Made by a program: the position numbers and the translations under genes. A model generated the notes under the pieces. That model worked only from the letters and a program-made list of their open reading frames with translations, searched no databases and was not told the DNA's origin. A stretch of 64,000 nucleotides of DNA from positions 19,462-83,461 of IMG/VR virus record IMGVR_UViG_3300036780_000171; one strand, 5' to 3'. The DNA comes from a virus. Shown here piece after piece: positions 3,283-20,200 of this stretch (the first letter of the stretch is position 1; each line of letters opens with the position of its first letter).

Positions 3283-3438
3283 TTACCATATTTTTTCAAT
3301 TTTAGCGCATAAATAGCCTACTATTAGTATAGCAGCGGTAAATAAGGCCATACCAATATTAGAAAATATTGCTATGAGAAAACAAATAATAAATACGAAG
3401 ATGCCATACCATCTGGAAATTGCAACGCGTTTATTCAT
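3283..3438 (-). CDS. Small membrane protein (51 aa)
   Basis: Manual translation MNKRVAISRWYGIFVFIICFLIAIFSNIGMALFTAAILIVGYLCAKIEKIW*, two hydrophobic segments. Confidence 0.55.
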   Translation of the reverse strand: MNKRVAISRWYGIFVFIICFLIAIFSNIGMALFTAAILIVGYLCAKIEKIW

Positions 3439-3444
3439 GGTACC

Positions 3445-3585
3445 TCAATTTAAAAGTAAGGCATGGCTATATCGAGCCTGGTTAATAGCTTGATTTATTG
3501 AATCATTTATATACAAGCAACACATGACTACAGTTAAAATAACACATATAGCTATGACCGGTAAGCTGAAAAGAACATTTTTCAT
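3445..3585 (-). CDS. Small membrane protein (46 aa)
   Basis: Manual translation MKNVLFSLPVIAICVILTVVMCCLYINDS...LLLN*. Confidence 0.5.
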   Translation of the reverse strand: MKNVLFSLPVIAICVILTVVMCCLYINDSINQAINQARYSHALLLN

Positions 3586-3639
3586 AATTAAGCTCTTATC
3601 ATTAGTATAAATTCGTAACAGATATAAAACAAGAAAATA

Positions 3640-3668
3640 TTGATAATTTTACACTCGTGCTATATAAT
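3640..3668 (+). promoter_or_regulatory. Sigma70-type promoter of tRNA array 1 leader
   Basis: TTGATA(3640-45)-17 nt-TATAAT(3663-68), 6 nt before ATG 3675. Confidence 0.8.
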
Positions 3669-3674
3669 AAAAAT

Positions 3675-3737
3675 ATGGCTAAACTAAACGTATTATCAAG
3701 TTCGTTTTATCTCTTGGAAACTCCAGAGGTCTATTAG
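3675..3737 (+). CDS. Attenuator leader peptide 1 (MAKLNVLSSSFYLLETPEVY)
   Basis: Leaderless ORF with codons CTA,TTA,TCA,AGT,TCG,TTT,TAT,CTC,TTG matching the downstream tRNAs; contains antiterminator TCCAGAGGT (3722-30). Confidence 0.8.
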   Translation: MAKLNVLSSSFYLLETPEVY

Positions 3738-3762
3738 CCATATGCTAACTTGGTACGAGAAT

Positions 3763-3794
3763 AAAACCTCTGGAATTTAACCAGAGGTTTTTTT
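3763..3794 (+). terminator. Intrinsic terminator (attenuator) upstream of tRNA array 1
   Basis: AAAACCTCTGG-aatttaa-CCAGAGGTTTTTTT. Confidence 0.88.
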
Positions 3795-3803
3795 AATACC
3801 TAA

Positions 3804-3878
3804 TGCCTTGTAGCTCAACAGTAGAGCATCGGCCCGAAGAACCGAGTGTAGTGGGGGCAGCACCCACCGAGGCAACCA
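3804..3878 (+). tRNA. tRNA-Phe(GAA), atypical (C33, C31-A39 mismatch, T-loop GGCAGCA)
   Basis: Cloverleaf TGCCTTG/CGAGGCA, loop CCGAAGA, encoded CCA. Confidence 0.8.
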
Positions 3879-3881
3879 TAA

Positions 3882-3969
3882 TCGGGAGCGGCGAAGATGG
3901 CGAGTCGCAGCAGTCTGTAAAACTGTTGTCCTTGTGGCTAAATAGGTTCGAATCCTATCTCCCGAACCA
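3882..3969 (+). tRNA. tRNA-Tyr(GTA)
   Basis: TCGGGAG/CTCCCGA, loop CTGTAAA, long variable arm, TTCGAAT, CCA. Confidence 0.92.
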
Positions 3970-3970
3970 T

Positions 3971-4048
3971 GCTCATGTGGCGCAACTGGTAGACGCAAAC
4001 GGCTCAAACCCGTTCCAACTACAGGTTCGAATCCTGTCATGAGTACCA
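3971..4048 (+). tRNA. tRNA-Leu(CAA), short variable region
   Basis: GCTCATG/CATGAGT, AACGG-CTCAAAC-CCGTT, TTCGAAT, CCA. Confidence 0.92.
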
Positions 4049-4049
4049 A

Positions 4050-4126
4050 GCCCCGGTGACGGAACTGGCATACGTACTTGGCTTAGAACCAAGGTTTTAG
4101 GGGTTCGACTCCCCTCTGGGGTACCA
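4050..4126 (+). tRNA. tRNA-Leu(TAG), short variable region
   Basis: GCCCCGG/CTGGGGT, CTTGG-CTTAGAA-CCAAG, TTCGACT, CCA. Confidence 0.92.
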
Positions 4127-4132
4127 ATTTAT

Positions 4133-4216
4133 GCGTCGTTGGCGGAACAGGTATACGCAGTCGGCTTAAACCCGATGCCGCAAGGTTTACTGGTTCGAAT
4201 CCAGTACGGCGTACCA
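4133..4216 (+). tRNA. tRNA-Leu(TAA)
   Basis: GCGTCGT/ACGGCGT, GTCGG-CTTAAAC-CCGAT, variable arm, CCA. Confidence 0.92.
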
Positions 4217-4222
4217 AAATAT

Positions 4223-4310
4223 GGAGGGTCGCAAGGCTGGCGTGCTTATCGGTTTTGAAAACCGTGATGGGGTAAAACCTGTGGGGAATCGTTCTCTCCA
4301 CCCTCCGCCA
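4223..4310 (+). tRNA. tRNA-Ser(TGA), atypical T-loop
   Basis: GGAGGGT/ACCCTCC, G73, loop TTTGAAA, long variable arm, CCA. Confidence 0.85.
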
Positions 4311-4336
4311 AGTACCATCTGAAAACTGGAAATTAG

Positions 4337-4422
4337 GGTGAGTGAACTGGTTGGGAATCAGCTTTGTTTGCTAAACAAATGGCACCGCAAGGTGTGAGTG
4401 TCGGGAACTCCGCTCACCGCCA
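4337..4422 (+). tRNA. tRNA-Ser(GCT), atypical T-arm
   Basis: GGTGAGT/GCTCACC, G73, TTTGT-TTGCTAA-ACAAA, long variable arm, CCA. Confidence 0.82.
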
Positions 4423-4437
4423 TGTTATAATCAGAAT

Positions 4438-4575
4438 ATGTTGGAATTTATAATTTTAATTCTAGTCTTGCTTTGGGTTGGCGGCTTATTGGCAAATGTT
4501 GGCGGCTTAATAAATCTGTTGCTCATAGTTATTCTGGTCTTAGTGATTGTTAAGCTTGCACAGCGTGCCAGATAG
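4438..4575 (+). CDS. lmo0937/DUF5670-like small membrane protein
   Basis: MLEFIILILVLLWVGGLLANVGGLINLLLIVILVLVIVKLAQRAR*; TGTTATAAT just upstream. Confidence 0.75.
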   Translation: MLEFIILILVLLWVGGLLANVGGLINLLLIVILVLVIVKLAQRAR

Positions 4576-4589
4576 CTTATAATCAAAAG

Positions 4590-4710
4590 TGCAACTACTC
4601 TTAGTTGCAGGGTGAGTCATGGGGTGGCCTTTTGAAAAAACCACTTGCGTTGAACTGAAACGAGCTTTTATCGACCGGGGCTTGGTAGCAGGAAGCAAGT
4701 GGTTTTTTCA
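4590..4710 (+). ncRNA. Candidate structured small RNA
   Basis: TATAAT 4578-83; hairpin TGCAACTA/TAGTTGCA; perfect 16-bp inverted repeat 4633-48/4695-4710. Confidence 0.35.
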
Positions 4711-4718
4711 TGGCAAAG

Positions 4719-4749
4719 AAAAAAGGCCAGATTTTCGCTGGCCTTTTTT
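4719..4749. terminator. Bidirectional intrinsic terminator between the convergent tRNA arrays
   Basis: AAAAAAGGCCAG-attttcg-CTGGCCTTTTTT. Confidence 0.88.
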
Positions 4750-4768
4750 ACTCACATATAAGATTCTC

Positions 4769-4844
4769 TGGTTGCGGGAACACGAGAGTTGAACTCGCTT
4801 AAGAAGCCTTATGAGAGCTTCGAGATACCGACCTGCCGCCCGCA
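4769..4844 (-). tRNA. tRNA with CAT anticodon (Met or Ile2), atypical
   Basis: TGCGGG/CCCGCA, AAGCT-CTCATAA-GGCTT, TTCAACT, CCA; own TATAAT 6 nt upstream. Confidence 0.72.
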
Positions 4845-4861
4845 TTATTAATTATATCATA

Positions 4862-4936
4862 TGGTTCAGGTGCTTGGATTCGAACCAAGATTGCGTGAGT
4901 CAAAGTCACGAGTCCTACCTATTAGACGACTCCTGA
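4862..4936 (-). tRNA. tRNA-Gln(TTG)
   Basis: TCAGGAG/CACCTGA, CGTGA-CTTTGAC-TCACG, TTCGAAT, CCA. Confidence 0.9.
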
Positions 4937-4937
4937 T

Positions 4938-5014
4938 TGGTTGGCGAGGTTGGATTCGAACCAACGAATTACCAAGTTCAGAGCTTGGAGCCTTACCAGC
5001 TTGGCCACTCGCCA
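4938..5014 (-). tRNA. tRNA-Gln(CTG)
   Basis: TGGCGAG/CTCGCCA, CCAAG-CTCTGAA-CTTGG, TTCGAAT, CCA. Confidence 0.92.
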
Positions 5015-5086
5015 TGGTACACCTAGTCGGATTTGAACCGAACATCAAGGCTTAGAACACCTTTTCACCTGTCCTGGGCTGGGTGC
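5015..5086 (-). tRNA. tRNA-Arg(TCT), degenerate or atypical D-arm
   Basis: AAGGT-GTTCTAA-GCCTT, TTCAAAT T-loop, acceptor with one mismatch, CCA. Confidence 0.65.
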
Positions 5087-5087
5087 T

Positions 5088-5162
5088 TGGAGGGCTAGGA
5101 GAATTTCGAAATCTCGACTGCCGCATTAAGAGTGCGGTTCTCTGCCTCTGAGTTACTAGCCC
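5088..5162 (-). tRNA. tRNA-Lys(CTT)
   Basis: GGGCTAG/CTAGCCC, CCGCA-CTCTTAA-TGCGG, TTCGAAA, CCA. Confidence 0.88.
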
Positions 5163-5568
5163 GTTTTCTGCGCCCAGTACGCCAGCGATATTTATTCTGA
5201 CTATCTGCCGAAGCTCTCTTACAAGCATTACATCGACAGCCATATTTATATCCTGTATATGTACCATGGATTAAATGTCGTTTTCTTCTTCCAGCTAACC
5301 TACCTTTACGAGAAGCATCTTGCATATTGTCAGCGCGTGTACCAAGAAATAAATGGCTAGGGTTTACGCATATCTTATTGTCACATTTATGGCATACATC
5401 AATTCCTTTGGGTATATCCCCGTTAGAAATAATCCATGAAACACGATGTGTGTCAATAACTTTTTTGCCGACTTTAAAACAGCCATAGCCATTTTTAGTA
5501 CGTCTTGCGGCCATCCATAGCCAGCAATTGCTAGATTTATCGACTTTAAGCCAAAAACGCTTCTCCAT
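5095..5568 (-). CDS. HNH homing endonuclease; 3' end overlaps tRNA-Lys
   Basis: [47 protein letters not shown]. Confidence 0.9.
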
Positions 5569-5608
5569 TGGTCGTCATTATAGCACGAACCTTTTTAATG
5601 TACAATAT

Positions 5609-5684
5609 TGGTCAGGGTTGCAGGCTTTGCTCCCGCCGCCTCTGAGTCCCAAACCCAGCGCTCTACTAAATGAGCTAAACCCTG
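5609..5684 (-). tRNA. tRNA-Pro(TGG), atypical T-loop AGCAAAG
   Basis: CAGGGTT/AACCCTG, CTGGG-TTTGGGA-CTCAG, CCA. Confidence 0.85.
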
Positions 5685-5687
5685 ATA

Positions 5688-5758
5688 TGGCACCGGTGTA
5701 AGGGTTCGAACCTCATCTCGCAGTTTTGGAGGCTGCTACGCTCCTAAGCGTCACCGAT
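5688..5758 (-). tRNA. tRNA-Trp(CCA), shortened D-arm
   Basis: ATCGGTG/CACCGGT, G73, GCAGC-CTCCAAA-ACTGC, TTCGAAC, CCA. Confidence 0.8.
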
Positions 5759-5761
5759 ACG

Positions 5762-5789
5762 AAAAAACCGCCCTTGTGTAGGCGGTTTC
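5762..5789 (-). terminator. Intrinsic terminator (attenuator) upstream of tRNA array 2
   Basis: GAAACCGCC-tacacaag-GGCGGTTTTTT on the - strand. Confidence 0.85.
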
Positions 5790-5812
5790 CTTTGCTATGT
5801 TAAGAATTCTGA

Positions 5813-5887
5813 CTATGCTAAGAAACCACCCGTGCTAATCGGATTATCGTGCTTCCACACGCGGACTGGTTTACATATGTTAGCCAT
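5813..5887 (-). CDS. Attenuator leader peptide 2 (MANICKPVRVWKHDNPISTGGFLA)
   Basis: Leaderless ORF with the same 21-nt start as leader 1; GGGTGGTTTC (5822-31) pairs with the terminator 5' arm. Confidence 0.75.
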   Translation of the reverse strand: MANICKPVRVWKHDNPISTGGFLA

Positions 5888-5893
5888 ATTTTT

Positions 5894-5922
5894 ATTATAT
5901 GGTAGTGAATAAAAAAAATCAA
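5894..5922 (-). promoter_or_regulatory. Sigma70-type promoter of tRNA array 2 leader
   Basis: TTGATT-17 nt-TATAAT, 6 nt before ATG 5887. Confidence 0.8.
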
Positions 5923-5925
5923 GTC

Positions 5926-7326
5926 CTACATAAATACCACATCATTTGCCGTTACTGCTACAGTGTTACTAAATGTCATTGAAGCGGCATCGGCTATGTC
6001 AGGACTAGCAATACCACGTTTGCCAAGCTCTTCCTTTGGCTCAATTTTCACTCGGCTGGCGCTATCCGGCTTATAGTTAATTAAGCTAATCTGATAAAAT
6101 TCTTCGGTTTTAACAATTTTGCCGCCGCCCTTTACCCACTGGCCAAGTAACCAGTATGCTTCCGCGCGCAAGTTAGCATAGCTGTCTTTTTCGTATGCTG
6201 TAGTTCCGCCTTTGAATGTATTGACTACTATATTTCGTTCGGCCAAACGGTTGCCCACGCCATGACCCACGCCGCTATCGTCAACCGTAACGTCTGTGCT
6301 GGTTATCTCGTATTCTTTCATATAGCCTTCAATCCGGCCGACTTGTGCCATTAAATCAGGGTCACGGTTCTTTTCTAGCAAGCGCATATAATTGTCGTAA
6401 CGCAGCACAAACGTGGTGTAGTTACTTCCACCGGCCGCGATGTCAACACCTAAGCGCGGCCGACCCACGGGGCGCGGTATTTGTAGCTCGGCATCTTCGT
6501 ATGCTCTCTCAAGGTCACTATCCGTAACCAGCTTCCGCCAGCCCTGCTCATTAACTTCATCTTCTTCGGGGAATTGGCAAGCATAGAGAATATCGAAAAA
6601 GGCTTCATTTCGCATTTCCTCGATAAAGGCTTCGCTATAGCGATTTTCTCTAAGTGCCTGCACATAGTCGATAAAAATACGGAAATAGCGGCCATTGTTC
6701 CATGTCCGGTGGAAGTGATTGCGATAAAATGGGTTGCCAATTTTGAGCAAGAAGCTATCTTGCTGACCACCAAGCATACGCATAACCATGCTCTGTAGGT
6801 CATCTGGAATCAGCGCTGACTCGTCTTCTATAATATTTGGGCTACCAAAGCCAGTTAATGACTCTTTCACGCGTTGGCGGTTGCGAGAGTCGGCTGTAAA
6901 GGTACGTATGCCGCCGCCGCCTTTCCAAGTCACCTGTCGCTTATTTCTGGTACGACGCAATTTATCTAGCGGTTCGTTCGGGTCAAGCTCAAGCTGGCTA
7001 TAGAATTGTTCATGGTCGAATGAGTGCTGTATCACCTTTTCCATAATAATCTGCGACTTTGGTTCTGACCCCGTCACAATAGCAAACTGCTCATGAAAGG
7101 CTTGGCTACGCACGATTAAAGCCATCGCCACCGTTGAGCTTTTACCATACTGTGTGCTGGCAATAACCTGCACCCGTTGGTGGTCTTTTATAAATATGAC
7201 ATTAAAAATATCTGCCTGGCCGTCTGTTAATTCAAACGGTAAGCCTTTATCATCTCTAAAATAGCGTCTAACTATTTGCTTCGCTATTTCCCGATTCTGC
7301 TGTCTCGCTTGGCTCGTCGTCGGCAT
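5926..7326 (-). CDS. terL: Terminase large subunit
   Basis: Walker A-like ASTQYGKS, Walker B IIEDES, GNP motif, RNase H-like LGVDIAAGG and SPDIADA. Confidence 0.92.
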   Translation of the reverse strand: MPTTSQARQQNREIAKQIVRRYFRDDKGLPFELTDGQADIFNVIFIKDHQRVQVIASTQYGKSSTVAMALIVRSQAFHEQFAIVTGSEPKSQIIMEKVIQHSFDHEQFYSQLELDPNEPLDKLRRTRNKRQVTWKGGGGIRTFTADSRNRQRVKESLTGFGSPNIIEDESALIPDDLQSMVMRMLGGQQDSFLLKIGNPFYRNHFHRTWNNGRYFRIFIDYVQALRENRYSEAFIEEMRNEAFFDILYACQFPEEDEVNEQGWRKLVTDSDLERAYEDAELQIPRPVGRPRLGVDIAAGGSNYTTFVLRYDNYMRLLEKNRDPDLMAQVGRIEGYMKEYEITSTDVTVDDSGVGHGVGNRLAERNIVVNTFKGGTTAYEKDSYANLRAEAYWLLGQWVKGGGKIVKTEEFYQISLINYKPDSASRVKIEPKEELGKRGIASPDIADAASMTFSNTVAVTANDVVFM

Positions 7327-7711
7327 TTTCAAGGTTCTTTCTCATAAGATTGGCTAGTTCACGCAACTCGTCATCTTCTTTGGTTTTAATCTCGCCCTCG
7401 ACTTCAACCTTGGCTTTATTTGTAAAGTTTGGGTCTTTTTTCTCCAAGTACCATTTGGCCGTTGGTAAATCTTTCCCTGATGCAAGGGCTTCGGCCACTA
7501 TATCACGGCTGGTTTGGGCTAGAAAGTTTTTAGCTGCTTCCATTCTTTGGGAAAACTCAGGATATTTTTTCAGCCAATCATAATAGGTCGTTATATCTAT
7601 AACAGCGTAACGACAAGCTGCTTCGATTGAGCTATCACGCTGAAGCATAGCAACGAGTTTCCCAACGATTTCCTCGCTATAAATTGTTGGTCTACCTATT
7701 TTTTTTGCCAT
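7268..7711 (-). CDS. terS: Terminase small subunit
   Basis: GRPTIYS N-terminus, HTH (ACRYAVIDITTYYDWLKKYPEF), AKWYLEK; overlaps terL. Confidence 0.8.
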   Translation of the reverse strand: MAKKIGRPTIYSEEIVGKLVAMLQRDSSIEAACRYAVIDITTYYDWLKKYPEFSQRMEAAKNFLAQTSRDIVAEALASGKDLPTAKWYLEKKDPNFTNKAKVEVEGEIKTKEDDELRELANLMRKNLENADDEPSETAESGNSEANS

Positions 7712-8320: not shown

Positions 8321-8911
8321 TTAATTCTCGTTGATTAACTCAAGCAATGCGGTTTCTTTGCTCTCATCAATAGCCAATAAATGCTGCATGACTCTATCGC
8401 CATCATCCTTGCCAAAGTGAAATACGATGGTCACACCATCACCGGCTACTTTACCGCTGCTATCATAGTTATCAAAGTCAAAGTTCGCAATTTCCTGCAG
8501 CTCTTCCAGTTCGGTTTCCGTGTAAGGCAATAGCACTTGGCCGGGGTACTCAATAAGCAATTTGTTTACCAGGTAGGCTTCTTCGACCCTATCGAATGGT
8601 ACTTGCTGCTGGTACCAGATAGTTAATTCACGGGCGCGTTTATCGTCAACCTTACCTTCATTGTAGATATTTATTTCTGTAAAGCCTAGCTCTTTTGCCG
8701 CAGTGTATCTTTGGGCACCATCAATAATTTCGTAAGAATCTTTTTCTAATTCTCTCACTAATATTATGCCTCTTAAACCATTAGTTTGAATACTTTTAAC
8801 TATCTTGTGGTATTCACTGGTGTCTGCTTTTTTCGGATTATACTCATTAGGTTTAACACTATTAATGTCAACCTTTAGTATCTTAGCTGGTTCGAAGTCT
8901 AGATTTGCCAT
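8321..8911 (-). CDS. ParB/Srx-like N-terminal domain protein
   Basis: PNEYNP..SIQTNG..YEIIDGAQR; such genes often lie beside dpdA. Confidence 0.8.
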   Translation of the reverse strand: MANLDFEPAKILKVDINSVKPNEYNPKKADTSEYHKIVKSIQTNGLRGIILVRELEKDSYEIIDGAQRYTAAKELGFTEINIYNEGKVDDKRARELTIWYQQQVPFDRVEEAYLVNKLLIEYPGQVLLPYTETELEELQEIANFDFDNYDSSGKVAGDGVTIVFHFGKDDGDRVMQHLLAIDESKETALLELINEN

Positions 8912-9973: not shown

Positions 9974-10944
9974 ATGGCACCTCTCATCTCAAACCAACGT
10001 TTTAGTAGCATCTTGGTACGGCCAATACGATAATCCCGTATATCCAGCTTGCTGGTCAATATGCTAGGGTCTGGCTCTTCCAGATGTGGTTCGTGAATAC
10101 CGTTATTTTCCATGGCTATAGCACGACTGACACAGGCATTGCAAGTACCGCAAGCTATCTCGGAATCACTATAACATGACGTTGAGAAATCGGTTAGCTC
10201 TTGGGCATCGAACTCCTGACCGTATTTGTGGATGAGCTGGCTTTTTGTCCACTTGCCAAACGGCGTATGCACTTTGACTTTTTGTGGTTCAAGCCCTTGA
10301 AATTTGCCGGTGGTAATAGACTTGAGCAGTTTGCTGGCGTGACGGTAAAAGGTGGGATTTTTATCAGGTGCCCATTCGGCAATCTGGCTTAGTACAATAT
10401 CAGGCGAATACGTGCTGGCAGCCATAAGAAAGTATAGATTACGATATGGAATATAGCCATTATCCATTTCATGCTGACCAAGTTGTAGGCTACGGTCAAT
10501 GGTAATGTCACCGTCAAACCGTTCACGTATTTTTCCAACGGCTGCCAGTTCTTTGTCTTGTGCTCTATGGCCTATGGCAAAGTATACGGCTTTTGGCTGG
10601 CCTAGTAACCGCCAAGTGGCAAAGCTATCCAATCCGCCCGATAATAGCATGACACTGTCTTCTGGTGGCTGCTCCACGCGTTTATGCTGATATGGTTCGT
10701 AAGCAAAGTTGTGGGTATACCTATCTTGTTCCATGTGTCGTTGCCAGGCTTCGCCAAGCGCTGGTGCAATGGCTGATGCCCTACTGACTGCCACATCGGT
10801 ATTATGGTGGTTGCGACATAAACGTTGCCAAGTCTCGATTTGCACGGCTTGGCCGAGTACAAACATATCAGGCAAGGTCGTTAATACCGCTTGCTCAAAA
10901 CCGGCTTCTTCGTATGTAGTCGCAAAATGTTCGTGGGTTTTCAT
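9970..10944 (-). CDS. queC: 7-cyano-7-deazaguanine synthase QueC with N-terminal extension
   Basis: LLSGGLDS PP-loop, YIPYRN, SCY..CGTCNAC zinc motif. Confidence 0.88.
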   Translation of the reverse strand: MKTHEHFATTYEEAGFEQAVLTTLPDMFVLGQAVQIETWQRLCRNHHNTDVAVSRASAIAPALGEAWQRHMEQDRYTHNFAYEPYQHKRVEQPPEDSVMLLSGGLDSFATWRLLGQPKAVYFAIGHRAQDKELAAVGKIRERFDGDITIDRSLQLGQHEMDNGYIPYRNLYFLMAASTYSPDIVLSQIAEWAPDKNPTFYRHASKLLKSITTGKFQGLEPQKVKVHTPFGKWTKSQLIHKYGQEFDAQELTDFSTSCYSDSEIACGTCNACVSRAIAMENNGIHEPHLEEPDPSILTSKLDIRDYRIGRTKMLLKRWFEMRGAI

Positions 10945-11055
10945 GTCTATTGGAATGACGTAAATATTGATGTAGCAGCGCCGACAAAAATAAGTGCAAA
11001 AAATAGAATAATGCCGACAATTAGCGCGGCAAATATTAAGTTATTTAGATTATAT

Positions 11056-12138
11056 TTAAGCTTTACCATTAATAAATGAAATCCATTCCTGGCGTGTAGC
11101 CAGCTGCTCCTTAAATGCCCCGAGTAAATGAGCTGTAGTGACTTCTTGACCATCTTGTTTGACCCCACGCATAACCATACAATAGTGCCTGCCCTTGATA
11201 GATACTGCTACTCCTTTTGGTTCTAGGTTACTATAAATTGCGTTTGCAAGATGAACAGTCAGCTGTTCCTGGAGAATAGGTTGACGACCGAGTAGTTCAG
11301 CTATCCTTGTAAACTTAGATAACCCCATAACTGACCCGTCAGGAATATATGCTAACGCAATGCTATAGTCAACTGGCAATAAATGATGCGGGCATAAACT
11401 ATAGACCTTTATATTTGTGAATACTATCATCTCATCATTGTCACAAGGGAATTTTGACTTGAAAATTGCTTCTATTTCTTGCTTGGCTTTTGGCTTGTTA
11501 CCTTCAAATAACTCCTGATACATTCTGGCAACCCGCAGCGGAGTTTCTTTAAAATCAGGTTCATCAAGGTTGACGCCTAGAGACTTAAGAATCTTCGCAA
11601 TGTAGTTCTCAACGGTAGCTAAACCAGCAAAGTGACCACTTGTTTTGCCGACTTCATTATGTATTTTTGAATGGTCTGGACGACATAAAATAATTAGGTT
11701 GGAAGTATCATTATTCCATTTCCTACCGTCAAGATGATGCACGATTAAGTCAAAGCCATCAACTGGTTCTCCACATCTTTGACAAAACTTACCACGTTCT
11801 TTAATAATAATTTTTTTGGCGATAATAAAAGAATCTTTGGTTAAGCTTTCTTTTATCTTTTCTATCTGTTCGGCCGTCTTTGGATATTTACCGCTTTTTT
11901 GTCTTAATTCTATTTGTTTCTGGTCTTGCATTTGTCTGGTAGCAAGCTCACTTTTTAGTTGTCTCAGCTTAGGGGTATATGATTTCTTAATAATATTGCT
12001 ATGGTCTTGATAGCGACAAGTAACCGAACAATAAATTCCTTTTTGCATACTAGGGTAATACTCAAACTTTTTGTCGCAAACTAGACAAGTTGCAGTTTTT
12101 TTGGCACCATTTTTGCTGCTTTGGTTATTTTTTACCAT
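11056..12138 (-). CDS. folE: GTP cyclohydrolase I (FolE) with N-terminal HNH endonuclease fusion
   Basis: C-terminal ETPLRVARMY, SLCPHHLLP, GLSKFTR, QEQLT, HYCMVMRGV; N-terminal CQRCG..VHHLDG..NN..NLIILC..H. Confidence 0.9.
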   Translation of the reverse strand: MVKNNQSSKNGAKKTATCLVCDKKFEYYPSMQKGIYCSVTCRYQDHSNIIKKSYTPKLRQLKSELATRQMQDQKQIELRQKSGKYPKTAEQIEKIKESLTKDSFIIAKKIIIKERGKFCQRCGEPVDGFDLIVHHLDGRKWNNDTSNLIILCRPDHSKIHNEVGKTSGHFAGLATVENYIAKILKSLGVNLDEPDFKETPLRVARMYQELFEGNKPKAKQEIEAIFKSKFPCDNDEMIVFTNIKVYSLCPHHLLPVDYSIALAYIPDGSVMGLSKFTRIAELLGRQPILQEQLTVHLANAIYSNLEPKGVAVSIKGRHYCMVMRGVKQDGQEVTTAHLLGAFKEQLATRQEWISFINGKA

Positions 12139-19434: not shown

Positions 19435-20200
19435 TGCTGTATCTCCCTGCCTTTAAAATAATATCAACTGCCCGAAAAATGGGGCGGATTTCTTCGTTAC
19501 TTGGCATCTTGCCATTCAGCCAATGCTGTATGTAGCCGCGAGCACCTTTCTTATCCCAATCCTGGCCGTCTATAGCTTCTGTTTCGTTCATAATGATATA
19601 TGCCACGGCTTCGGCTTGAAACTCACGTATATCGCGTTCTATAGCCTTTGAGTCCATAATCTCTTTGTCAGTATGGCCAAGTATAATATGGGCAATTTCG
19701 TGTATTGCAGTTTCTATAGGGTATTCCGCTATCGGATTTATCGCGAATGAATGGTGGTGGGCATATCCCTGCACGTTGCCATTGGTGCGTTTAAATTCTT
19801 CTTGGCCAATAATCAGCTCACTGCAGGCCGCTAATACGCTCCAGGCTGGTAGTTCAATATGCTTTTTAAGTTCTTCGCCTTCCGTATCTGACAATGTAAA
19901 CACGCATTTGAGCGGTTTGAAGATAATAAATTCTTCTTTCTTTTCGCCTTTTTCATTTGTCTTATAGACCGGCGTGGGCTTGACAATGATTTTTGCTTTG
20001 CTGCCCTTTTTAACTGTACGTCCGAGTTGTTTCCAACGTAACCACGTAGCTACCGGCTCTTCGACATCTTGCGACCATAATAGTAACTGATTGCCATAGC
20101 TGTAGTTATAAAAGCGGTTAAATATTTTGCTTAGGCTGCCTTCCACCTTGATTGCCTCTGTAATTAAGGCTGACCAATCTGGTGTTTTTATTACTTCCAT
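19403..20200 (-). CDS. ardC: ArdC-like antirestriction/ssDNA-binding protein with zincin HEXXH domain
   Basis: FYNYSYGNQLL..ATWLRWKQLGRTVKKGSKA; HEIAH..EFQAEAVAY; start moved to ATG 20200, 6 nt after TATACT. Confidence 0.85.
   Translation of the reverse strand: MEVIKTPDWSALITEAIKVEGSLSKIFNRFYNYSYGNQLLLWSQDVEEPVATWLRWKQLGRTVKKGSKAKIIVKPTPVYKTNEKGEKKEEFIIFKPLKCVFTLSDTEGEELKKHIELPAWSVLAACSELIIGQEEFKRTNGNVQGYAHHHSFAINPIAEYPIETAIHEIAHIILGHTDKEIMDSKAIERDIREFQAEAVAYIIMNETEAIDGQDWDKKGARGYIQHWLNGKMPSNEEIRPIFRAVDIILKAGRYSNAKATTHTGQ

Follow-up and report, generated by a model that had tools for sequence, protein, structure and literature searches.

Leader-peptide attenuators of enterobacteria can respond to several amino acids at once, as in the thr (Thr and Ile) and ilvGMEDA (Ile, Leu and Val) leaders, and attenuators of this kind also precede trp, his, leu and pheA. 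Here we describe an element of similar design in a virus, at positions 5922-5762 on the minus strand of a 64,000-nucleotide (nt) stretch of DNA (hereafter the window; positions 19,462 to 83,461 of the IMG/VR virus record IMGVR_UViG_3300036780_000171), where a short open reading frame (ORF), which we call leader 2, and an intrinsic terminator stand before an array of transfer RNA (tRNA) genes, array 2. We propose that this element is probably a ribosome-mediated leader-peptide transcription attenuator of a horizontally mobile phage tRNA cassette, partly orphaned in this phage. Like the enterobacterial attenuators, it combines a promoter, a short ORF with putative regulatory codons, predicted helices between regions 1 and 2 (1:2), 2 and 3 (2:3) and 3 and 4 (3:4) and an intrinsic terminator; its stop codon is placed so that a terminating ribosome would mask region 2, and several amino acids are represented in the one leader. 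Unlike them, it would regulate tRNAs rather than biosynthetic enzymes, so that its product could relieve the stall directly; its leader samples at least 10 amino acids, mostly once each and not in runs; its messenger RNA is predicted to be leaderless; and it lies on a mobile phage cassette.

Other systems share part of this logic. The pheST attenuator (pheM leader) and the T-box riboswitches resemble the phage element in that a component of aminoacyl-tRNA supply is raised when that supply is short; unlike it, they regulate aminoacyl-tRNA synthetases and not tRNA genes. T-boxes, moreover, read uncharged tRNA directly, without a ribosome, and Rfam gave no T-box match at the phage element. The leader peptides of Corynebacterium glutamicum attenuators are leaderless, which provides a precedent for ribosome-mediated attenuation by a leader ORF that begins right at the 5' terminus of its RNA. 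Amino-acid attenuators with leader peptides have been described in that species for trpE, leuA, ilvB and aroF (PMC3890552); unlike the phage element, these control amino-acid biosynthesis operons in a cellular genome. A candidate precedent from Escherichia coli, a leader-peptide attenuator of pheU/pheV, was not supported, the published leaders being 3-4 nt long.

The nearest system in print is the trn operon of Anabaena sp. PCC 7120, a long tRNA array that is silent and is induced under translational stress (PMC8421152), with TrcR as its repressor (PMC10272220). As in the phage, this is a horizontally spread, supernumerary tRNA array with a homing endonuclease, and it is switched on when translation is impaired; unlike the phage element, it is controlled by a protein repressor and is cellular rather than phage-borne. 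Neither paper on it (PMC8421152, PMC10272220) mentions a leader peptide, attenuation or a terminator, and a full-text literature search found no published account of leader-peptide attenuation of tRNA genes. The window contributes a small (83-kb) phage, a cassette common to phages without detected shared proteins, and an apparently orphaned leader whose missing tRNAs are present in relatives.

Results

A candidate attenuator in front of tRNA array 2

The sequence analysis covers the parts of the element, its alternative pairings, their conservation with different stems and the match between codons and arrays across a family of leaders. A first-pass annotation of the window had described leader 2 as a paralogue of a leader (leader 1) that precedes an oppositely oriented tRNA array (array 1), with a promoter, a 21-mer common to both leaders, a 24-codon ORF and a terminator 3 nt before tRNA-Trp. 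All of these parts lie where it had placed them (Table 1), the paralogy holds, and the same architecture is conserved with different stems in other phages. The window has exactly two copies of the 21-mer ATATAATAAAAATATGGCTAA, one on the plus strand (3662-3682) and one on the minus strand (5900-5880); about 0.01 would be expected by chance. Because the -10 box ends 6 nt before the leader 2 ATG, the transcript should start at or beside the AUG and hence be leaderless. In the whole 83-kb genome, a -10 box followed after 5-8 nt by an ATG, an ORF of 8-45 codons and a terminator coincide at only two sites, both of which head tRNA arrays.

A start of this type is not unusual for the phage. TATAAT stands 4-9 nt before the start of 11 of its long ORFs, and operon-internal genes use GGAG-like sites; leaderless starts appear to be the norm for operon-first genes, so that such a start is plausible for leader 2. 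The 20-mer TATAATAAAAATATGGCTAA (made up of TATAAT, AAAAAT and ATGGCTAA) also opens long ORFs (MAK... or MAN...) in 10 other viral contigs (L010-L019). No leader was found among the 10 contigs with the exact 20-mer, all of which carry ordinary leaderless protein genes at it, and this suggests that the 20-mer is a widely reused promoter-and-start module.

Downstream of the promoter, four segments of the RNA (regions 1 to 4, Table 1) could pair in alternative ways. The first-pass annotation had noticed that a segment near the stop codon, GGGTGGTTTC, is complementary to the 5' arm of the terminator. This segment is contained in region 2, the stop codon itself being ORF nt 73-75, and the pairing is strong: the 2:3 duplex reaches -17.6 kcal/mol, compared with -8.1 +/- 2.0 kcal/mol for 1000 dinucleotide shuffles of the upstream leader, each paired with the terminator 5' arm, none of which was as strong (0/1000, p<0.001). 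The terminator consists of a 12-bp stem and a T6 run (5791-5762). When the full RNA was folded freely, it formed the 1:2 helix (AAACCAG.TCC with GGG.TGGTTT) together with the terminator (-36 kcal/mol, z -2.3). With a ribosome footprint at codon 6, 9 or 12 and the 3' arm of the terminator not yet made, constrained folding gave the 2:3 antiterminator; with the ribosome at the stop codon, region 2 was covered and the terminator formed.

A terminator and an antiterminator in front of tRNA genes could also belong to a switch set by a factor other than the ribosome, such as direct tRNA binding in the manner of a T-box, or a phage or host antitermination protein. We regard this as highly improbable: at E up to 5, Rfam gave no match to a T-box or other riboswitch within 3300-6100, a T-box would need a longer leader than this one, which is without specifier or T-loop architecture, and the in-frame codon content of the leader covaries with the arrays (see below), which would be needless for an RNA that binds a protein or a tRNA. 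Leader 1 scored 32.4 bits (E 0.0078) against the Rfam family RF01859 (Phe_leader), below the gathering score of 55 and thus outside the family.

Conservation of the reading frame and of the pairing, with different stems

A search with the odd T-arm of the tRNA-Phe of array 1 returned 42 viral loci, many with tRNA arrays, among them the phages L032 and L042; a third phage, L070, was reached through a neighbouring protein. The window phage shares the cassette with all three, and because none of their proteins matched any of its ORFs, we consider the cassette to be mobile. Its genes fall into blocks. Block A begins with a leaderless ORF; a terminator comes next, and then the tRNAs Trp, Pro, Lys(TTT), Arg(TCT), Lys(CTT), Ile(GAT), Ile(TAT), Val, Arg(TCG), His, Asp, Asn and Cys. 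Block B has a leader of the form MNYVTTQQ(E/A)(A/E)G.., a terminator, and tRNAs Thr, Gly, Ala or Cys, Glu, Glu, Gln and Gln, and is followed by a tRNA with a CAT anticodon under its own promoter. Block C consists of an F/Y/L/S-rich leader, a terminator, and tRNAs Phe, Tyr, Leu(CAA), Leu(TAG), Leu(TAA), Ser(TGA) and Ser(GCT), the gene order of array 1 in the window. Pattern searches for an F/Y/L/S leader or for the odd Ser tRNA returned mainly L032, L042 and L070, and a metagenome scan added one further contig, L081, and two short or duplicate pieces. A Gln-rich candidate leader on L075 was discarded as an apparent artefact, a spurious tRNA call within coding sequence, and inspection of the annotation around the tRNAs of Mesorhizobium phage Cp1R7A-A1 and Proteus phage Stubb found no comparable leaders.

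Leader 2 is the window's version of the block A leader (A-type). It can be aligned as DNA with those of L032 (MITICPKPVNKRDTHIV), L070 (MFTRCTVKPINKRDIHVSLVSAA) and L042 (MKTICQPTNKDAQPEAKADLT) through ATATGY, AAACCAGTC and AAGCRCGAT, and the insertions and deletions among the four within the ORF are all of 3 or 6 nt. Leader 2 therefore appears to be under selection as a reading frame, and its ORF to be translatable. Region 1 reads AAACC in three of the four and CAACC in L042. The four terminators differ in sequence (AGGAAACCGCCT, AGAAGCCGCTCCT, AAACCGCCTTC and AGAGACCAGCG), and for each of them the leader supplies a complementary region 2 of its own, located at the stop codon or shortly before it (p <0.001, 0.017, 0.009 and <0.001), so that the covariation of antiterminator and terminator that the first-pass annotation had suggested looking for is present. 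As the terminator regions were too poorly aligned by MAFFT for a formal pair count, these values come from tests of each duplex against shuffles, sequence by sequence. In the wider family of 11 leaders, region 2 is in every case located within a span from about 17 nt upstream to 8 nt downstream of the stop codon, with differing sequences, and its duplex has p<0.02 in nine. The 2:3 duplex of leader 2 is the second strongest of the 11, after that of the A-type leader of L070 (-18.1), and in 10 of the 11 the -10 box puts the ATG 4-7 nt downstream.

These comparisons bear on the idea that promoter and terminator delimit a gene for a small non-coding RNA, about 125 nt long, with an incidental ORF and tRNAs made by leaky read-through. 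The leader 2 RNA is indeed well folded (z -2.3) and has no Shine-Dalgarno sequence, and terminated attenuator RNAs can act as small RNAs in other systems, as PMC7968998 describes for rnTrpL. Such a gene would not account for an ORF that is open in all four homologues with length changes only in multiples of three, for an amino-acid composition that tracks the downstream tRNAs when the RNA sequence is not what is conserved, or for a region 2 that is always at the stop codon; nor does any Rfam family match the stretch at E up to 5. We therefore give this explanation very little credence.

Leader codons and tRNA arrays

Codons at which a ribosome could stall without covering region 2 were defined as sensor codons; in leader 2 there are 14 (codons 2-15: GCT AAC ATA TGT AAA CCA GTC CGC GTG TGG AAG CAC GAT AAT). 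They correspond to block A of the relatives in 13/14 cases for L032 (p 0.001), 13/14 for L070 (p 0.002) and 14/14 for L042 (p 0.02). Leader 1 with array 1 (together unit 1) served as an internal comparison. None of the 14 codons (0/14; a p-value is not applicable) overlaps the amino acids of array 1, and, as the first-pass annotation had reported, L, S, F and Y are absent from the first 17 residues of leader 2; its view that two sensors split the codon space is thus borne out. It had also suggested that codons of leader 2 without a tRNA in array 2 mark tRNAs lost from that array. The cognates of these orphan codons, namely AAC/AAT (Asn), TGT (Cys), GTC/GTG (Val), CGC (Arg), CAC (His) and GAT (Asp), are indeed encoded in block A of the relatives, where the expected Cys, His, Asp, Asn and Val tRNAs behind the leader are accompanied by Ile and Arg(TCG).

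The correspondence extends to the other leaders. When the leaders of the relatives were compared with their own and with other arrays, the diagonal of the cross matrix exceeded the off-diagonal among distinct array types. The lack of Gln codons in leader 2 follows from the block structure, since the Gln tRNAs of L032 and L070 belong to block B, which has its own QQ leader; this T/Q/E/A/G leader (leader B) is absent from the window phage. In L042, where leader B is missing, Gln, Glu, Ala and Thr tRNAs are part of the one unit behind leader A, which contains CAA, CAG, GAA, GCC/GCA/GCG and ACT/ACC/ACG codons. In contig L067, the leader MSTNRQQQNPVSLLGLCL (MSTNRQQQNP...) stands before Asn and Gln tRNAs only (5/9 matches, 0.8 expected, p 0.001). 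Leaders rich in F, Y, L and S precede Phe, Tyr, three Leu and two Ser tRNAs in all four phages, and among these C-type leaders the order of the four residues is shuffled and the composition kept, which fits selection on codon content and not on peptide or RNA sequence. In addition, TGG occurs in leader 2 and in no relative and, with two Pro codons, stands immediately before Trp and Pro tRNAs.

On L081, a different AT-rich metagenome contig, an S/R-rich leader (MNTNINTSSSRSRCNRIKFGKC) precedes an odd Arg(TCG)-like tRNA and four Ser tRNAs, with weaker evidence for an antiterminator (p 0.03). Two tandem intrinsic terminators lie between its short ORF and the Arg(TCG)-like tRNA (element at 2902-2738, minus strand), an arrangement that could represent another type of attenuator, one with a double terminator.

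Points against a working attenuator

Several observations weigh against an attenuator that functions in the window phage. Compared with array 2 itself, the sensor codons of leader 2 match at only 5/14 positions at the amino-acid level (p 0.18, not significant) and at 3/14 under strict wobble rules, the codons with a cognate tRNA being TGG, CCA and AAG; Gln and AGA codons are absent from the leader, although array 2 has two Gln tRNAs and an Arg(TCT) tRNA. Internal promoters bypass the attenuator for five of the seven tRNAs of array 2, so that only Trp and Pro are exclusively gated, the genes from Lys to the CAT tRNA also lying behind these promoters, as the first-pass annotation had recognised. 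In the absence of a Shine-Dalgarno sequence, translation of leader 2 would rest on leaderless initiation. In nascent RNA without a ribosome, 2:3 pairing is already thermodynamically favoured over 1:2, and hence the untranslated state may read through rather than terminate; termination of untranslated leader 2 RNA would depend on folding kinetics, a departure from the textbook case. With regard to the family, the L032 terminator has a poor U-tract, and the examples are few and L032, L042 and L070 mutually related, so that few independent evolutionary events are represented. Finally, a search of sequencing runs with the window DNA found one DNA run, probably the one from which the sequence derives, and no RNA run.

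Some of these points could be taken to mean that leader 2 is a decaying relic which, after the loss of block A tRNAs and the insertion of an HNH homing-endonuclease gene, acts only as a fixed partial terminator that also ends transcripts of the operon of the large terminase gene (TerL). The non-significant match with its own array and the bypassing promoters would fit such decay, as would the fact that the tRNAs missing from block A are encoded nowhere else in the genome. A relic, however, would not be expected to preserve an intact promoter, ATG and reading frame together with all four RNA arms, to have one of the two strongest 2:3 duplexes among the 11 leaders, or to carry TGG, unseen in relatives, and two Pro codons directly before Trp and Pro tRNAs; moreover, leader 2 and the well-matched leader 1 have 21 identical nt at promoter and start. 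We therefore consider decay unlikely, though less so than the two alternatives discussed above.

Proposed mechanism

We propose the following sequence of events for the attenuator, in which translation, stalling and conditional read-through of leader 2 are predicted steps. Transcription would start at or next to the AUG, and a ribosome would translate the leaderless 24-codon leader. When decoding is fast, the ribosome at the stop codon would cover region 2, regions 3 and 4 would form the terminator, and transcription would end 3 nt before tRNA-Trp. If a shortage of charged cognate tRNA stalled the ribosome within codons 2-15, region 1 would be covered and region 2 left free; region 2 could then pair with region 3 and block the terminator, allowing RNA polymerase to enter the Trp and Pro genes and to continue past the HNH gene into the Lys, Arg and two Gln tRNAs. 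The newly made tRNAs would relieve the stall at codons served by the block.

In the window phage this loop appears to be incomplete. Leader 2 would keep the codon roster of a fuller ancestral array (Pro, Lys, Ile, Val, Arg-TCG, His, Asp, Asn and Cys), of which block the phage would have retained only Trp, Pro, Lys(CTT) and Arg(TCT), and the Gln, Gln and CAT tRNAs would have been joined to it from an adjacent block, the leader of which this phage lacks. With such a partly orphaned roster, leader 2 would still be a translation-stress gate, with feedback only through Trp, Pro and AAG-Lys codons, and also through ATA if the CAT tRNA is an Ile2 tRNA. Loss of the Ile, Val, Arg(TCG), His, Asp, Asn and Cys tRNAs in the window lineage is the simpler direction, since the codon order of the leader is as in L032 and L070, although the comparison is unrooted.

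Organisation of the tRNA island and its genome

The content of array 2 reported in the first-pass annotation was confirmed (Table 1). ARAGORN at default settings misses Trp(CCA) and Arg(TCT), both of which were recovered at a lowered threshold and in a cloverleaf scan. The HNH gene splits array 2, its 3' end overlapping tRNA-Lys, and with its own promoter it sits where the relatives have Lys(TTT); the Lys, Arg and both Gln tRNAs are thus downstream of the attenuator and of the internal HNH promoter alike. The window cassette lacks the Ile-to-Cys stretch, leader B and the Thr-to-Glu tRNAs; what is left of block A connects directly with two Gln tRNAs and the CAT tRNA. In L032, an HNH-like ORF lies just upstream of leader A.

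The arrangement of the CAT tRNA with its own promoter is also found in L032 and L070. In the three phages an extended -10 box (TGATATAAT, TGTTACAAT or TGCTACAAT) lies about 7 nt before the mature 5' end (window 4859-4773, minus strand; L032, about 8765-8856; L070, about 6575-6484), and this tRNA, accordingly, would have no 5' leader and would escape control by any attenuator. The distance from Gln(CTG) to the CAT tRNA is roughly 20-30 nt in L032 and L070; in L042 about 800 nt without tRNA genes, in which small ORFs and GC-rich hairpins occur, separate the two (10680-11480).

The tRNA-Phe(GAA) of array 1 (3804-3877) has C33 and the T-arm GTGGG-GGCAGCA-CCCAC. This T-arm 17-mer recurs in 42 IMG/VR contigs, and in L032 (7216-7287) and L042 (9344-9415) it sits in a tRNA with a CTT anticodon; the CTT tRNA of L070 (7999-7928) has a one-base variant with a GGCGGCA loop. 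Many tRNAs of the cassette are without the usual GTTCRA T-loop (e.g. GGAGCATTACC and GGGGCAGTACC).

The IMG/VR virus record to which the window belongs is 83,461 bp long, comes from a soil metagenome and has direct terminal repeats; a single assembled contig of 83,347 bp spans the tRNA island with zero differences. The island is about 2.7 kb long, lies between the terminase and portal genes and holds the two convergent arrays, the HNH gene within array 2 and an AP2-domain ORF at its edge; Infernal found no tRNAs outside it in the whole genome. In the nearest readable TerL relative (L003, 67% identity) the portal gene follows TerL directly, with no tRNA island, and we therefore consider the island an insertion. 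No tRNAs were found near TerL in the IMG/VR TerL relatives L003-L009. The closest TerL relatives on long Logan contigs (P0002, P0007 and P0008) have 67-69% identity, TerL of cultured phages at most 29%, and a blastn search of 3500-7400 against cultured phages returned tRNA-to-tRNA matches only. The AP2-domain match of the ORF that flanks array 1 (3263-2754) is weak and below the Pfam cut-off. Between the convergent arrays, right after the last tRNA of array 1 (4426-4575, plus strand), GTTATAAT is followed after 6 nt by the ATG of a very hydrophobic 45-codon ORF (MLEFIILILVLLWVGG...), which looks like a further leaderless gene, for a small membrane protein.

Table 1. Positions of the leader 2 element, the genes of array 2 and neighbouring features in the window.
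Feature	Position	Strand	Basis or remarks
Small terminase gene	7711-7271	-	upstream of leader 2
Large terminase (TerL) gene	7326-5926	-	upstream of leader 2
Sigma-70-type promoter	5922-5894	-	TTGATT (5922-5917), 17-nt spacer, TATAAT (5899-5894); 10/12 consensus matches
Leader 2 ORF (A-type)	5887-5813	-	ATG 5887, stop 5815-5813; 24 codons, MANICKPVRVWKHDNPISTGGFLA
Region 1, predicted anti-antiterminator arm	5872-5863	-	AAACCAGTCC; codons 6-9; pairs with region 2 in free RNA (minimum-free-energy folds)
Region 2, predicted antiterminator 5' arm	5832-5819	-	CGGGTGGTTTCTTA; codons 19-23, ORF nt 56-69; ends 4 nt before stop
Region 3, terminator 5' arm and predicted antiterminator 3' arm	5791-5780	-	AGGAAACCGCCT; fold and duplex analysis
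Region 4, terminator 3' arm and T-run	5773-5762	-	GGGCGGTTTTTT; fold analysis
tRNA-Trp(CCA), non-canonical, first gated gene	5758-5688	-	Rfam tRNA model, 26.5 bits; ARAGORN at 85% threshold
tRNA-Pro(TGG), second gated gene	5684-5609	-	tRNA scan
Internal extended -10 box TGcTATAAT	5585-5577	-	before HNH gene
Leaderless HNH homing-endonuclease gene	5568-5095	-	Pfam HNH_3, E 4.9e-13; inside array 2
tRNA-Lys(CTT)	5162-5088	-	tRNA scan
tRNA-Arg(TCT)	5086-5019	-	ARAGORN at lowered threshold
tRNA-Gln(CTG)	5014-4938	-	tRNA scan
tRNA-Gln(TTG)	4936-4862	-	tRNA scan
Own promoter of CAT tRNA, extended -10 box	4859-4851	-	TGATATAAT; sequence
CAT tRNA	4844-4773	-	tRNA scan
End-of-array terminator, array 2	4749-4719	-	sequence
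Paralogous unit 1	3640-4421	+	promoter, leaderless leader MAKLNVLSSSFYLLETPEVY, terminator, then Phe, Tyr, three Leu and two Ser tRNAs
Portal gene	2692-155	-	other side of tRNA island from terminase

Discussion

Classical attenuation ties ribosome stalling to amino-acid biosynthesis. At leader 2 and its relatives the same logic appears to be wired to tRNA genes, which would give a direct feedback on decoding capacity. More broadly, and as a tentative generalisation that we hold with some doubt, phage tRNA cassettes could be self-contained sense-and-supply modules, in which the stalling sensor of each block is written in the codons of its own tRNAs and the block is transcribed only when the matching tRNAs of the host are in short supply, uncharged or have been destroyed, as by anticodon-nuclease defences. 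Such modules would move between phages that have no detected proteins in common, helped by homing endonucleases. In the window phage the sensor would have outlived most of its tRNAs, so that the supply of Trp, Pro and Lys tRNAs would also answer to a shortage in decoding Asn, His, Asp, Cys, Val and Arg codons.

If tRNA genes are indeed controlled by such attenuation, this would answer the open question of how and when phages express their tRNA arrays. Phage tRNAs would then be an inducible response to codon-specific translation stress, possibly including host defences that cleave tRNAs, and the tRNAs that a block serves, or once served, could be predicted from sequence alone. Leader 2 would be the clearest illustration: it would record tRNAs that have disappeared from the phage, and these are exactly the ones that its relatives carry.

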